The notes under the pieces were generated by a model. It was not told the DNA's origin, did not search any database, and saw nothing but the letters and a program-made list of their open reading frames with translations. The position numbers and the translations under genes were made by a program. This document shows positions 2,184 through 62,302 of a DNA stretch of 64,000 nucleotides, one piece after another (position 1 is the first letter of the stretch; every line of letters begins with the position of its first letter). The stretch comes from an uncultured Candidatus Saccharibacteria bacterium (lineage in GTDB: Bacteria > Patescibacteriota > Doudnabacteria > UBA920), in the NCBI GenBank assembly GCA_964594755.1, contig CAZQMO010000001.1, positions 68,838 through 132,837 of the forward strand, given 5' to 3'.

Positions 2184-3222
2184 AGCGGTTCAAAAAGAAA
2201 ATGATGATTGACATGATTCCTGAGATGGCAGATAAGATCCAGAATCGCATGGTAATTTTTGCCTCTGGCCAACCACTGGCTTCTAAGTGGTGATGGATAG
2301 GCGCGGATAAAAAGAATTTTCGTTTAAACACATGTCGCCAAAAGATTTGAATAAAATAACTTAAAGCTTCAATTACAAAAATTAATCCAATTAATGGTAA
2401 TAAGTATACGCTGTTAGTTAGGAACGCTACTATCGCCAGTAAGACTCCTAAACCCATTGATCCCGTATCTCCCATAAAGAACCTGGCCGGATACACATTG
2501 AACCATAGGAAGGCTAGTAAGGCTCCAGAGACGACACCCAGCATTACTGCTAAATCTTCACGGCCCTGCATAAATGCGATTACCATGTAACACAAGAACG
2601 CTAAGAGTAAAACCCCACCAGCTAAACCGTCTAGGCCATCGGTTTGATTGACTGCAAAACTCGTTCCTACTGCAACAAGCAAGAAAAATGGAATGAACCA
2701 CCACCCTAGAGTAATGTCACCATAGAAAGGAATCTGAACAAAATCAAAACCCAATTTAAAATAGAACCACCAGGCTCCGATCATGGCTACGGCTGTATAG
2801 AGTAAAACTTTAAATCGGAATCTAAACCCTCTACCTTTGTGTCCAAGTCGGCGAATATCCAAATAATCGTCCATTAAGCCAACAGTTGCAGCCCCAACTA
2901 AAGCTCCTAATGGGAGTAAAGTTTCTTTTCGCGTTAAGAAATTAAAAATATGAAACTGCTCCAGTCCCAAGAGTCGATCCAGTGACCAAAAAACTACAGC
3001 TAATACTACAGTTGTACCCCAGACAATGACTCCTCCCATAGTTGGAGTACCAGCTTTGGCATGGTGCATATTGGTGTAGAGTGGAGTAGTACCATCATTA
3101 CGGATTTGTTTGCCAAGTCGGTATTTGTAAAGAAACTTTGTAACTAGTGGTGTAATTGCTATGGCAAACAGAAAACTTACCATAGTTAAGCTAAAAATTT
3201 TGATGAGTGATTCAGTTATCAT
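2182..3222 (-). CDS. mraY: Phospho-N-acetylmuramoyl-pentapeptide transferase MraY
   Basis: Polytopic membrane protein with MraY motifs NQTDGLDGLA, MGDTGS and PIHHHLE. Confidence 0.93.
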   Translation of the reverse strand: MITESLIKIFSLTMVSFLFAIAITPLVTKFLYKYRLGKQIRNDGTTPLYTNMHHAKAGTPTMGGVIVWGTTVVLAVVFWSLDRLLGLEQFHIFNFLTRKETLLPLGALVGAATVGLMDDYLDIRRLGHKGRGFRFRFKVLLYTAVAMIGAWWFYFKLGFDFVQIPFYGDITLGWWFIPFFLLVAVGTSFAVNQTDGLDGLAGGVLLLAFLCYMVIAFMQGREDLAVMLGVVSGALLAFLWFNVYPARFFMGDTGSMGLGVLLAIVAFLTNSVYLLPLIGLIFVIEALSYFIQIFWRHVFKRKFFLSAPIHHHLEASGWPEAKITMRFWILSAISGIMSIIIFFLNR

Positions 3223-3276
3223 TGCTATTATTATACCATATTTAAAGCGACCCTGAGAGGTCGCTTTGTGTATGTC

Positions 3277-4185
3277 TTAACGGTTCAGAAACTGCTTTCG
3301 TAACTCTAGGGTGTCACCTTCTCGGTCTGGGCTACCAATAACCACAAGTAGTTTTCTGCCACGTTCTGTGTCTAAAAAGTTAATCATCGCACCTAGTGCT
3401 AAATTGGTATACCCAGTTTTTACTGCTCGCAGATCTGGATATTGATTGGCTAGTCTGTTAGTCGCTGAAATAGCGTATTGATTTCCTAATTCACTGACAA
3501 ATCTATATTCAGTAGCTTTTTCTGAATCAGTAAACATACCTCGTTCGTCTAACTTATGTACTAAAATAGAAAGGTCTCTAGCTGAAGAATAATTCACTAC
3601 GCTATCAAAGCCCATGGGATTACTAAATCGAGAATTCTTCATACCAAGTTCTATCGCCTCTTGGTTCATAAGTTCACCAAATGGTAATTCCACTTTTTTT
3701 GCCACGAACCCTCCTAGCACACTAGCAGCATCGTTAGCCGAGCCAATTAGCACAGCACTAACTAGATCTTTTACCCTGATTTTATCACCGGGTTGTAATC
3801 CTAGAACCGGACTCACATTCACAATGTCCCCTGCTTCAACGGTTACCACTTCCGCTGATTGAGAGTGCTCGAGCGCGGTCCATACCGTCATCAACTTGGT
3901 TAGGCTGGCGACAGGTAAGGAATTATCAATCTGCTTCCCCGCAATGATCTGATTTTGCTCATAGTCCAGAACCAGGTAACTAGCTGCTTTAATTCCAGTA
4001 GTATTCTCATTAGACAGCTCATAACTAACTAAGTTGTCTAATTCTGCTTGCTCTCTATCGGTTGCACCTAAAATTTTAATCTGGTTTGTTGGAGCAAAGG
4101 CAGGATCGCTTAACAAAACACTGCCAATCATAGGCAGGAGCAATCCTGCTATGACTGCACTTGATCGGCTGAAATGTTTGTTCAT
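3277..4185 (-). CDS. dacA: D-alanyl-D-alanine carboxypeptidase (S11, PBP5/6-like), secreted
   Basis: N-terminal signal/TM segment plus the SxxK (SLTKLMT), SxN (SAND) and KTG (KTGYT) motifs. Confidence 0.85.
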   Translation of the reverse strand: MNKHFSRSSAVIAGLLLPMIGSVLLSDPAFAPTNQIKILGATDREQAELDNLVSYELSNENTTGIKAASYLVLDYEQNQIIAGKQIDNSLPVASLTKLMTVWTALEHSQSAEVVTVEAGDIVNVSPVLGLQPGDKIRVKDLVSAVLIGSANDAASVLGGFVAKKVELPFGELMNQEAIELGMKNSRFSNPMGFDSVVNYSSARDLSILVHKLDERGMFTDSEKATEYRFVSELGNQYAISATNRLANQYPDLRAVKTGYTNLALGAMINFLDTERGRKLLVVIGSPDREGDTLELRKQFLNR

Positions 4186-25427: not shown

Positions 25428-25760
25428 AAGCTTTAAGCAGGCCGAGCAATCGCCCGCCGCCATGAGCGGCTGGAGGAAAGTCCGGACACTCGAGTTGAAA
25501 GTATCATATGAGCTTTTAACCCTAGTAGCGGGTAACACCCGTCGGGAGTAATCCTAGAGATGCGAACAGTGACGCCTAAGCAGAGATGCAAGGGAATCCT
25601 TCGGGATTAACTTTTGCGGAAACGCAAAAGATGAAACGGCTAAATTCTTACTTGAGTGCAATGCCAAATTTGGTAGGCAGCACGAGCGCCTTGGTAACAA
25701 GTCGCCTAGATAGATGATTGTTTAGAACCAGAATCCGGCTTACGAACCTGCTTGAAGCAA
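25428..25760 (+). ncRNA. rnpB: RNase P RNA, bacterial type A
   Basis: Contains the universal GGAAAGTCCGGAC (P4 5' strand) and AGAATCCGGCTTA (P4 3' strand) motifs. P1 pairs 5' gaagctttaagcagg with 3' cctgcttgaagc. Length is about 333 nt and the region is GC-rich relative to its flanks. Confidence 0.88.
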
Positions 25761-31045: not shown

Positions 31046-31131
31046 TGGTGGGCCGAGCAGGATTCGAACCTGCGAAGGCGAAAGCCAGCAGATTTACAGT
31101 CTGCCCTCGTTGACCGCTTGAGTATCGACCC
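31046..31131 (-). tRNA. tRNA-Tyr (anticodon GTA), long variable arm
   Basis: Reverse complement GGGTCGATACTCAAGCGGTCAACGAGGGCAGACTGTAAATCTGCTGGCTTTCGCCTTCGCAGGTTCGAATCCTGCTCGGCCCACCA. Confidence 0.88.
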
Positions 31132-60611: not shown

Positions 60612-61364
60612 TTGGCTCACGTAAAACTCCAACAATTTGAAGGACCGCTTGATTTATTACTCAGCTTAATTGAAGAGCAAAAATTGAGCATCACTGACAT
60701 CGCACTCGCCGAAGTTACCGAGCAGTTTTTAAATTATGTAAAACAGTTAGAGCAAATTGAACCAACGGCTTTAGCTGATTATTTAAATATCGCTGCCAAA
60801 CTGTTGGTGATTAAATCAAAAGCCATCTTGCCAAGCTTAGAAGTTGCTGAAGATGATGAAGCTGAACCAGAAGAAGATCTGACCAGTAAACTAATTCTTT
60901 ATAAAAAATTCAAAGAAGTGGCTCGGTATTTGCGTCAGGTTGACTCACAAAACCAGCAAGGATTTATTAGAACTGCCGTGTTCTCTCAAAAAGTAAACTT
61001 CTTCCCAGACCCACATGTCACAGCCCAGACCTTGCATGATTCCATTCTCAAAGTCCTCCAGCAACTCAAAGAATTAGATAATCTACCCAAAGCTCGCGTC
61101 AAAGAAGCAGTCTCCATTCAAGAAAAGATTTCTCATTTACAAGATAGTTTAGCTAGTCGGATTGAAACTAGCCTCAGCGAACTCCTCGCAGAAGCTAAAA
61201 ATAAAGATGAAGTGATTGTGACTTTTTTAGCCCTATTAGAGCTAATCAAACAACGTATCTTTAGCGTTGAACAAGAATTACTGTTCACAGATGTTAAAAT
61301 AAAAAAGTACCAGCCAAGCACTGCTAATGAATCAGTTTCTCAAGAAGAACAAACCCAAAACTAA
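60612..61364 (+). CDS. scpA: Segregation and condensation protein A
   Basis: ScpA N-terminal motif FEGPLDLLLSLIEEQKLSITDIALAEVTEQF. Confidence 0.88.
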   Translation: MAHVKLQQFEGPLDLLLSLIEEQKLSITDIALAEVTEQFLNYVKQLEQIEPTALADYLNIAAKLLVIKSKAILPSLEVAEDDEAEPEEDLTSKLILYKKFKEVARYLRQVDSQNQQGFIRTAVFSQKVNFFPDPHVTAQTLHDSILKVLQQLKELDNLPKARVKEAVSIQEKISHLQDSLASRIETSLSELLAEAKNKDEVIVTFLALLELIKQRIFSVEQELLFTDVKIKKYQPSTANESVSQEEQTQN

Positions 61365-61912
61365 TGAACCAACTTACTTCCAAAATCCATAGTCTTTTAT
61401 TTGTCACTAGCAAGCCAATGAGTGTTAAACAATTGGCGAAATTTGTTGATGCTCCAGAAACTGATATTCAATCTGCTCTCCAGGAACTAAAAGCTTACAC
61501 CGCAAATAGCGGCGTAATCTTACTCGAAGCTAATGGTAGTTTCCAGTTAGCCACTGCCAGCAGCAACACTGATATCGTAACTAATTTTCTAAATAGCGAC
61601 CTCCGCGAGCAACTTACGGATGCGACTGCTGAGGTTCTCGCCATTATCGCTTACCGCCAACCGATCTCTAAATCAGAAATAGAATCCATTCGCGGCGTGA
61701 ACTCGCAATATTCCATCCGTGCTTTATTGATGCGCGGGCTAATCGAGAAAGTTTCCAACCCGGATGATAGCCGCAGCAACTATTATCAAATCACCACGGA
61801 ATTCTTACAACAACTCGGTATTTCATCTATCAATGATTTACCTAACTTTGAGGAATTGACCCAAAACATAAAACTACCTGAGACTCCTGCTGCTAGCGAA
61901 TCTCAGCAATAA
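61364..61912 (+). CDS. scpB: Segregation and condensation protein B
   Basis: Two winged-helix ScpB motifs (LLFVTSKPMSVKQL; AIIAYRQPISKSEIESIRGVNS). Overlaps the scpA stop. Confidence 0.88.
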   Translation: MNQLTSKIHSLLFVTSKPMSVKQLAKFVDAPETDIQSALQELKAYTANSGVILLEANGSFQLATASSNTDIVTNFLNSDLREQLTDATAEVLAIIAYRQPISKSEIESIRGVNSQYSIRALLMRGLIEKVSNPDDSRSNYYQITTEFLQQLGISSINDLPNFEELTQNIKLPETPAASESQQ

Positions 61913-61914
61913 AA

Positions 61915-61941
61915 AAAGACTCGGAGGATGAGTCTTTAAGT
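61915..61941. terminator. Bidirectional terminator hairpin (aagactc-ggaggat-gagtctt) after scpB
   Basis: Stem flanked by A7 upstream and T-rich sequence on the - strand. Confidence 0.55.
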
Positions 61942-61943
61942 CG

Positions 61944-62036
61944 TTCGAGCAGGAGTCGAACCTGCGAGCACAGTCTGTCGTGCACCACCCTACCTTAAAC
62001 TGCAAGGCAAAGCTTCCAAACCAATTGGCCGAACCA
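61944..62036 (-). other. Aberrant tRNA-like element (canonical T-arm GCAGG-TTCGACT-CCTGC plus 3' acceptor strand, but no standard cloverleaf)
   Basis: The - strand reads ...GGTGCACGACAGACTGTGCTCGCAGGTTCGACTCCTGCTCGAACGA. It has a T-loop identical to the selC-type GGTTCGACTCC. A 6/7 acceptor pairing exists with GGTTCGG about 95 nt upstream. The body is too long or irregular for Leu/Ser/Tyr and has no UCA anticodon, so it is not a tRNA-Sec. Confidence 0.3.
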
Positions 62037-62179
62037 GCATCATTCCTCCGAGTTTTTTTTTGCTATACTTCAACGGTCGCAGTTTTTGTATCCCTTGTCA
62101 ACCTACTGATATAAAAATAAAACCAAAAATAATTTTTTGGTTTTATTAGTCAGTAAAGAAATTTAAAGAAAAACAGGGA

Positions 62180-62302
62180 TTAGCGAGGAAGCTGCTCGTA
62201 GGATTCTTGCGGTGAAGAAGGGATCTCACCTTTGATTTTTGTGTTATCGCAGGCTCCTGCAACTAAACCCAAGGACAGGAGAGCAATCAAAAAATATTTC
62301 AT
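62180..62302 (-). CDS. Small putative lipoprotein (40 aa, MKYFLIALLSLGLVAGACDNTKIK...), leaderless
   Basis: Signal peptide ending in the lipobox-like LVAGA-C. An extended -10 TGGTATAAT lies 6 nt upstream of the ATG (62306-62314) with -35 TTGGAA at a 17-nt spacing. Confidence 0.45.
   Translation of the reverse strand: MKYFLIALLSLGLVAGACDNTKIKGEIPSSPQESYEQLPR

Follow-up and report, generated by a model that had tools for sequence, protein, structure and literature searches.

Few RNAs are known to mimic transfer RNA (tRNA). They include transfer-messenger RNA (tmRNA), the Y RNAs and viral tRNA-like ends, all of which have been informative on how cells read the shape of a tRNA. The bacterial Y RNAs, which include Yrn1 of Deinococcus radiodurans and YrlA of Salmonella and Mycobacterium, are about 100-150 nucleotides (nt) long and combine a long stem, in which the 5′ end pairs with the 3′ end, with an internal tRNA-like module, thought to be tRNA-derived, that carries a canonical T arm and a D-like loop (PMC4201824). 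In Yrn1, the stem formed by the two ends occupies the acceptor position, next to the T arm and to an “anticodon arm” with a 6-nt loop, and known bacterial Y RNAs are encoded within ~4 kb of rsr, on the same strand (PMC4201824). Here we describe an element of related layout in a 64,000-nt stretch of a Candidatus Doudnabacteria genome (GenBank assembly GCA_964594755.1, contig CAZQMO010000001.1, positions 68,838-132,837; hereafter, the window), located between scpB and a small open reading frame (ORF). We favor the reading, to which we assign a probability of roughly 0.6, that this is the gene of a small RNA that stands alone, is shaped like a tRNA and is under structural constraint: a new tRNA mimic restricted to one lineage. 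The layout appears closest to that of Yrn1 and, more loosely, of YrlA, and we claim an analogy only. If the reading holds, it adds a case of mimicry in bacteria of the candidate phyla radiation (CPR), whose genomes are minimal and in which, to our knowledge, almost no small RNAs have been described, and it offers a concrete handle on the partner protein.

Predicted transcription unit and fold of the RNA

To define the element, we took loci near scpB from public assemblies and scanned one genome per species, which yielded 80 further Doudnabacteria loci (numbered with an L below). A covariance model trained on six copies of the element (R1) was run over the ~1.5 Mb of DNA fetched. It finds nine distinct copies, at 114-155 bits, in the window (61911-62053, 155.4 bits) and in L007, L001, L003, L005, L009, L087, L089 and L091, and no score above 22 bits in the rest of this DNA. 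The ScpB proteins of the other eight copy-bearing loci are 71-98% identical to that of the window, whose assignment to Candidatus Doudnabacteria is supported by its ScpB homologues. The original prediction, made on the window alone, had placed scpB upstream of the element on the same strand; the gene is in fact on the opposite strand and converges on it. The features of the locus, with scpB first and the others in their order along the minus strand, are the following:

61364-61912, plus strand: scpB, converging on the element, its stop codon abutting the element's terminator
62096-62101, minus strand: probable −35 box TTGACA, read from the sequence
62073-62078, minus strand: probable −10 box GACCGT, 17 nt after the −35 box, assigned from spacing and sequence across loci
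61911-62066, minus strand: predicted primary transcript of ~155 nt, from an A at 62066 placed relative to the −10 box to the T run
62044-62053, minus strand: 5′ strand of the outer helix, ACUCGGAGGA, pairing with 61919-61928
62030-62036, minus strand: 5′ strand of the acceptor-like stem, UGGUUCG, with a G:G mismatch at position 2 in the window copy
62016-62028, minus strand: D-like arm CCAA-UUGGU-UUGG, with a 4-base pair (bp) stem and a 5-nt loop containing GG
61987-62013, minus strand: anticodon-position hairpin with a 10-bp stem and the loop GCAGUUU at 62003-61997
61968-61983, minus strand: variable-arm hairpin GCACG-ACAGAC-UGUGC, with a 5-bp stem
61949-61965, minus strand: T arm GCAGG-UUCGACU-CCUGC
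61941-61947, minus strand: 3′ strand of the acceptor-like stem, CGAACGA, with an extra U at 61948 before it and no CCA after it
61919-61928, minus strand: 3′ strand of the outer helix, UCCUCCGAGU, overlapping the terminator hairpin in its loop and descending arm
61911-61937, minus strand: intrinsic terminator found by the terminator scan, hairpin AAAGACUC-AUCCUCC-GAGUCUUU plus a U run

Several of these parts had been proposed originally and were recovered as such: the T arm, read on the minus strand as GCAGG (61965-61961), TTCGACT (61960-61954) and CCTGC (61953-61949); the 3′ acceptor strand (T)CGAACGA (61948-61941); its imperfect partner GGTTCGG (62035-62029); and the terminator hairpin, which itself spans 61937-61915 and is followed by a T run. 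The complementarity of the 5′ segment CTCGGAGGA (62052-62044) to TCCTCCGAG (61928-61920) was likewise confirmed, and this alternative pairing is conserved in all nine copies.

Read on the minus strand, the 40-codon ORF (62302-62180) is followed by a hairpin and T run resembling a terminator, then by TTGACA, and no gene lies downstream of the element on its own strand. Judging from its promoter-like boxes and its intrinsic terminator, the element of the window is a complete and separate transcription unit, with a predicted start site. A CTTGACAAG box is found upstream of all nine copies, 17 nt from a −10-like hexamer, which reads CAnnnT in most of the other copies and TATGGT or TAATGT in sister lineages; the GACCGT box was not among the listings of a promoter consensus scan of the window. 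In six of the nine copies, a hairpin and T run, scored by eye as a terminator, separate the upstream small ORF from the element.

The putative transcripts of all copies open with an unpaired C/A-rich leader (ACACAAACAG, ACCCAAACAAAAAAG and similar; 62066-62054 in the window), followed by a GGAGG-like purine block that also occurs, unpaired, in divergent RNAs of the same locus.

The overall fold is a cloverleaf with an acceptor-like stem, a small D arm, a long stem in the anticodon position, a variable arm and a T arm, closed by an additional outer helix. To assess its conservation, we used an alignment of the nine sequences fitted to the R1 model (A5), which biases it towards structure, and compared its pairing with controls in which the 3′ partners were slid by 1-3 columns and with 500 shuffles. 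Standard pairs fill 92.5% of the pair cells of A5 versus 30-49% in the slid controls, and 18 of the 43 pairs are changed on both sides versus 0-5; the shuffles give 9.8 such pairs on average, and none of the 500 reaches 18. Mean column identity among the copies is ~71%, and every helix of A5, except the short inner part of the outer helix, contains at least one double-changed pair. As a check on the bias of A5, each of the nine transcripts was folded alone and unconstrained, and the same architecture was obtained in nine of nine. RNAalifold, run on six copies, returns five helices (outer, D-like, anticodon-position, variable and T) with 11 double-changed pairs; the acceptor pairs were added by hand to its structure. 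Given the folding z-score of the 151-nt stretch against shuffles (z = −3.85) and a fold kept in nine copies relative to slid and shuffled controls, the element is more than chance.

The outer helix joins the CGGAGG of the 5′ leader, present in nine of nine copies, to a CCUCCG of the terminator region over 10-17 bp. All nine copies form it when folded to minimum energy without constraints, and in A5 its two segments (helices 1 and 2) show 95% and 93% pairing and include two pairs in which both sides have changed. In L001 it reaches 17 bp by extending into the A-rich leader and the U tail, and in the window copy an internal loop separates it from the acceptor-like stem. In the latter stem, the GUUYG/CRAAC core is paired in nine of nine copies in the hand register, with a C:G to U:A change in three of them; in the model-fitted A5 the helix is 81% paired, and six of its seven pairs are changed on both sides. 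In the D-like arm, both partners have changed in three of the four pairs, and the GG of the loop is kept in eight of nine copies. The anticodon-position hairpin, modeled with eleven pairs, is 94% paired, four pairs being changed on both sides. The variable arm (helix 6 of A5) is also 94% paired and is predicted in each single-sequence fold. Pairing in the T arm is complete (100%), two of its pairs having changed on both sides, and its loop reads UUCGAnU in all nine copies.

The 3′ part of the RNA can adopt two structures. Folded alone, it forms the terminator hairpin, a modest one at −8.5 kcal/mol in the window and between −7.6 and −10.7 across the other eight copies. Within the whole transcript, the 5′ CGGAGG segment instead takes up the hairpin's loop and descending arm as its pairing partners. 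The hairpin and the outer helix are mutually exclusive, and both are kept in the nine copies. The local hairpin would probably form first and end transcription, and the longer 5′-3′ helix would be the more stable final state, sealing both ends of the RNA. The same two pairings could also suggest a cis-acting switch, in which CGGAGG competes with the terminator for CCUCCG and the binding or cleavage of the tRNA-like domain decides between termination and read-through antisense to scpB-scpA-aspS; as scpB converges on the element, read-through would indeed be antisense to it. We regard such a switch as improbable, because the closing helix and the terminator are separate in divergent RNAs at the same site (L011, L014, L078, L016, L057 and L058), so that the overlap is not general, because a different gene lies downstream in L007, and because the outer helix also precedes a U run and may itself terminate transcription.

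Comparison with tRNAs and other known RNAs

The original prediction had considered a non-canonical or disrupted tRNA. That the RNA is tRNA-shaped is borne out by the fold, but it is neither a decoding tRNA nor merely a disrupted one, given its compensatory changes, a loop of 4-7 nt and the lack of CCA. The T arm is canonical (5-bp stem, UUCRAnn loop). The acceptor falls short of the canonical form, with five to seven pairs formed and no CCA, the latter being encoded in none of the nine copies versus all four genuine tRNA genes of the window (Thr, Tyr, Thr and Trp). The canonical core (U8, A14, R15, G18 G19, A21) is not preserved either: position 8 is G, U or A, and only the GG is kept, in eight of nine copies. 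The anticodon-position stem measures 9-11 bp across copies, versus 5 bp in a canonical tRNA, and the loops it closes (GCAGUUU, GCAGUAU, GUAUUUU, AACA and CUUU among the copies) share no fixed 7-nt length, U33 or purine 37. ARAGORN called no tRNA or tmRNA at the window element and made no call on L007, L003, L009, L087, L089 or L091; its forced calls were a “tRNA-???” with the 4-nt anticodon “aaca” in L001 and a “tRNA-Asn att” in L005/L010. Because the “anticodon” loop varies in length and sequence, no CCA is encoded and no normal tRNA is called, the element is not a decoding tRNA and cannot decode. Such labels, given to two of the nine copies (“tRNA-Asn (att)” and “tRNA-???”), may contaminate tRNA inventories and genetic-code inferences for uncultured genomes.

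We searched Rfam 15 at gathering cut-offs and in a permissive mode up to E <= 10. No family reached its gathering cut-off on the element or its copies, the tRNA model (RF00005) staying below its cut-off, at less than 29 bits, on all copies searched; the best permissive match was tRNA-Sec (RF01852), with 19.7 bits versus a cut-off of 47. A normal tRNA at the position of the element was found by ARAGORN in none of 86 related loci. No program used here called a normal tRNA at the element, and relatives do carry it; the two outcomes that would have refuted the original prediction did not arise. We found no description of this RNA in the literature, in Rfam or with tRNA finders: mimicry of tRNA by bacterial small RNAs is a known theme, and this family is previously undescribed.

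Other identities were considered and rejected. For tRNA-Sec, besides the low score, the D stem has 4 bp rather than 6 bp and there is no UCA anticodon, whose absence had been pointed out from the start. For tmRNA, the ARAGORN search was negative, G3:U70 occurs in L007 only, and no conserved ORF is seen (by eye, the frames differ). A small protein would be compatible with the GGAGG followed by AUG in the window and L001, but frame, start and length are not conserved, L003 has no AUG, and the substitutions keep pairing and not amino acids. A tRNA with a short intron in its anticodon arm is contradicted by the variable extra length (shorter in L001 and L087) and by the lack of any recoverable U33/purine-37 frame. 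Identities as signal recognition particle RNA, 6S RNA, RNase P RNA or a riboswitch have no Rfam support, and an RNase P RNA is encoded elsewhere in the window (25434-25758).

Partial likenesses to these and other systems are nonetheless informative. Like the tRNA-like domain of tmRNA, the element sets an acceptor on a canonical T arm, has a reduced D region and no anticodon, and does not decode; unlike tmRNA, it has no tag frame, pseudoknots, encoded CCA or conserved G3:U70, and is ~155 nt long versus ~350 nt. With tRNA-Sec, the only Rfam model that aligns at all, as well as with class-II tRNAs and allo-tRNAs, it shares a D arm that is compact and has a small loop, a lengthened anticodon stem and a long variable arm; it lacks the UCA, the fixed 7-nt loop and the CCA, and does not keep the 8/5 or 9/4 arrangement of stems. 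A chromosomal tRNA-derived gene outside normal decoding, the pseudo-tRNA “tRNA-Other” of Bacillus cereus, is reportedly regulatory, but is said to keep an ordinary cloverleaf and anticodon loop, whereas in our element another hairpin stands in for the anticodon arm and a closing helix has been gained. The MALAT1 element mascRNA is also a non-decoding tRNA-like cloverleaf with a leader-trailer interaction; it differs in being eukaryotic, in lying within a long transcript and in directing cleavage by RNase P and RNase Z, and has no sequence relationship to the element (PMC8457004).

The closest likeness remains that to the Y RNAs. The element combines a terminal stem with a tRNA-like module and, like Yrn1, has its terminal stem at the acceptor position and a non-canonical loop in the “anticodon arm”, whereas the terminal stem of YrlA is in the anticodon position. 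This shared topology could mean that the element is itself a Y RNA and that its gene for a binding Ro60 (Rsr) orthologue lies in another part of the genome. We consider this very improbable: the Ro60 motif (GNCGAAN0-1G or GGUCCGA) is absent by eye from the nine copies, whose conserved 5′ motif is instead (A)NNCGGAGG, and whereas known Y RNA genes lie within ~4 kb of rsr, we found no rsr/TROVE gene among the called neighbors at related loci or the 25 largest ORFs of the window. In addition, the element differs by its variable arm and by an acceptor-like stem of 7 positions that stands on its own between terminal helix and junction, and no Y RNA model of Rfam 15 reached its cut-off or E <= 10 on it. 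Because the Ro60 motif is absent and no rsr is nearby, membership in the Y RNAs is not claimed.

We also examined the proposal of an attR-like scar, in which an integrating element would have left behind a duplicate of the 3′ half of a tRNA. Over the 23 positions of the T arm and three following bases, the element has only 3 mismatches to the tRNA-Tyr of the window, the only related sequence there, but this similarity ends at the acceptor strand. Moreover, the element has its own 5′ half, which pairs and covaries with the 3′ half; no integrase or recombinase lies beside it in the window and no duplicated half-tRNA is present; and the same complete unit occupies the same site in nine genomes. 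The element is not an integration scar, an explanation that these observations already contradict and to which we give next to no weight. The 25 largest ORFs of the window include no Ro60, integrase or reverse transcriptase.

As for the likeness to tRNA-Tyr itself, 20 of 23 bases of its T arm and first acceptor bases (31051-31073, minus strand, within 31046-31131) are as in the element, and by eye ~21 of 22 bases of such a run are shared in L007, a near-identical relative. This could reflect chance, shared origin or gene conversion.

The part of tRNA that enzymes indifferent to the anticodon read (the acceptor stem stacked on the T arm, and the elbow formed by the GG and the T loop) is conserved, as are the ends paired through the invariant CGGAGG/CCUCCG, while the anticodon loop varies. 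This pattern suits a tRNA mimic, which, of the three readings offered originally, agrees best with the data. In the mechanism that we propose, the RNA would have arisen by the repurposing of a class-II-type tRNA gene, and the acceptor/T-arm stack and the D-loop/T-loop elbow would have been kept for a partner recognizing the upper half of tRNA, candidates being RNase P, the CCA-adding enzyme, T-arm modification enzymes or another tRNA-binding protein. By analogy with bacterial Y RNAs such as Yrn1, the ends paired through CGGAGG/CCUCCG may provide nuclease resistance, a second binding site or both.

The main functional rival is an RNA that is aminoacylated without decoding: it would be processed, receive CCA, be charged by a synthetase that ignores the anticodon, and donate its amino acid outside translation, possibly to the cell wall or to lipids. 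Such enzymes and RNAs have precedents, as SerRS reads the long variable arm, AlaRS reads the acceptor stem, and Gram-positive bacteria have non-proteinogenic tRNAs. The element retains the stack of acceptor and T arm and the long variable arm; a variant at the same locus, in L057, has a 7-bp acceptor stem and resembles a Ser-like cloverleaf of class II; and YrlA of M. smegmatis is cut by RNase P and receives CCA (PMC4201824). However, CCA is not encoded in a genome whose tRNA genes do encode it (4/4 in the window), the discriminator base and the pairs 1:72 and 2:71 are not conserved, G3:U70 is confined to L007, the long leader-trailer helix would hinder processing of the ends, and no Fem/MprF-type gene was seen nearby among the neighboring genes, which were surveyed in part. 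We therefore hold a charged, non-decoding RNA to be unlikely, while ranking it ahead of the other alternatives.

Distribution and RNAs at the same site

So far, the element has been seen only in one subclade of Candidatus Doudnabacteria (Patescibacteria/CPR). Eight of the copies lie directly against the converging scpB, and that of L007 is ~0.6 kb off. A metagenome scan with GTGCWCRCWGGTTCGANTCCWG returned at least 80 loci; those listed scored no more than 22 bits with R1 and included no new copies. The pattern is too general, and these loci hold ordinary tRNAs, many of them in dense tRNA arrays. A gapped signature scan of viral contigs followed by R1 found no copies among the matches listed, and no sign of a phage-borne element.

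In L007, the closest relative (ScpB 98% identical), an additional membrane-protein ORF (3057-3655, plus strand) stands between scpB and the element. Because this ORF intervenes, tight linkage to scpB is not obligatory.

Other loci (L011, L014, L078, L016, L025, L057, L058 and L064) carry structured RNAs of ~115-170 nt in the same place, between the small ORF and scpB. Three of them are placed as follows:

L011 3225-3345, minus strand: divergent same-site RNA
L014 3110-3232, minus strand: divergent same-site RNA
L078 3225-3345, minus strand: divergent same-site RNA

Each of the divergent RNAs has a long closing helix and a multi-hairpin junction, and the CTTGACAAG box precedes some of them (L011, L014, L016 and L078). 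The RNA of L057 forms a near-canonical class-II cloverleaf: its 7-bp acceptor stem continues to 10 bp, its D stem of 3 bp closes a loop with GG, a 6-nt loop stands at the anticodon position, and the T loop reads UUCGAUC. T-like loops are also seen in L058 (UUCGUGC), L025 (AUUCGUGA) and L016 (GUUUGAU), while L011, L014 and L078 keep the GCAGUUU hairpin and the next one, the T arm being replaced by a GNRA hairpin. Rfam gave no match on these RNAs, and R1 with filters off gave no significant one, its scores of 13.9 bits in L014 and 7.7 bits in L057 falling in the right place; pairwise local similarity to the element is marginal. A common origin with the window element is plausible from synteny, the shared CTTGACAAG box and the shared GCAGUUU hairpin. 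If the divergent RNAs are indeed related, the family would derive from a class-II tRNA gene under rapid remodeling, and the window clade would be the one that retains the full acceptor/T-arm module.

We tentatively advance a broader view, which we regard as somewhat less than evenly likely. In Doudnabacteria, a class-II tRNA gene would have given rise to an unrecognized family of small RNAs that evolves fast and occupies a fixed site beside scpB. In the window clade, the RNA would have kept a functional acceptor, T arm and elbow and would truly mimic tRNA, either as a decoy or scaffold for an enzyme that binds tRNA or as a carrier charged with an amino acid for non-ribosomal use, whereas in sister clades the T loop would have been remodeled (UUCGUGC, GUUUGAU) or replaced by GNRA. 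If this is true, the locus records the stepwise conversion of a tRNA gene into a regulatory RNA, and its near-canonical, remodeled and T-loop-less versions form a natural series for the study of tRNA-gene repurposing.

The same distribution bears on another explanation, namely that the element is a decaying tRNA pseudogene kept as a shared terminator for the converging transcripts of the small ORF and scpB. In about half of the 47 loci with the 40-codon ORF, a terminator hairpin alone stands between ORF and scpB; L090 and L012 are among them, with ScpB identities to the window of 74% and 70%, respectively. In addition, the anticodon loop is degenerate, and other lineages carry progressively less tRNA-like versions. 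Neutral decay would not be expected, however, to leave 18 double-changed pairs and 92.5% pairing at ~71% identity, and streamlined CPR genomes rarely retain 150 nt of junk across nine lineages. Because seven helices are kept by compensatory changes, the RNA's own promoter boxes are conserved and a new conserved leader-trailer helix (CGGAGG:CCUCCG) has been added, plain decay does not account for the element, which is probably not a decaying pseudogene; we give this explanation little credence.

Several points weigh against the tRNA mimic that we favor. The close relatives L090 and L012 have no RNA at the scpB site, which means that the RNA can be dispensed with or moves within genomes. Several copies, the window's with its G:G among them, have mismatches at the top of the acceptor stem. 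The tRNA core is non-canonical, position 8 not being a conserved U and the D loop having just 5 nt, so that not every tRNA enzyme would accept the RNA. The structure rests on nine sequences of a single clade, with A5 fitted to the model. Finally, we infer both the partner and the role of the RNA throughout.

Neighboring genes and other observations

Across the loci, the genes found near the element include aspS, scpA, scpB, the 40-codon ORF, tRNA-Glu, and genes for a Na/H exchanger, a fatty-acid desaturase, YfhO and others. The 40-codon ORF (62180-62302, minus strand) encodes the lipoprotein-like sequence MKYFLIALLSLGLVAGACDNTKIKGEIPSSPQESYEQLPR, without a Pfam match, and is kept beside scpB in 47 distinct Doudnabacteria loci. 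A TATAAT lies only ~8 nt before its ATG, which suggests that its mRNA is probably leaderless.

Four further observations concern RNAs and tRNA genes elsewhere. The RNase P RNA of the window (25434-25758, plus strand) is of bacterial class A, scores 120 bits and is ~40 nt shorter than the model, several helices being reduced. In L091, a large serine recombinase (2555-3585, minus strand; Resolvase/Recombinase/Zn-ribbon) abuts a tRNA-Glu (2521-2595) next to the small ORF, which hints at integration at this tRNA. A SAM-I riboswitch is found in L014 (4785-4952, minus strand) on a Doudnabacteria contig, its 46.6 bits being just above the cut-off. In L054, ARAGORN calls a tRNA with the anticodon UUA (3584-3658, minus strand; “tRNA-Stop”), a possible suppressor, and at the matching place in L050 (3531-3604, minus strand) an odd tRNA with a 2-nt anticodon call.

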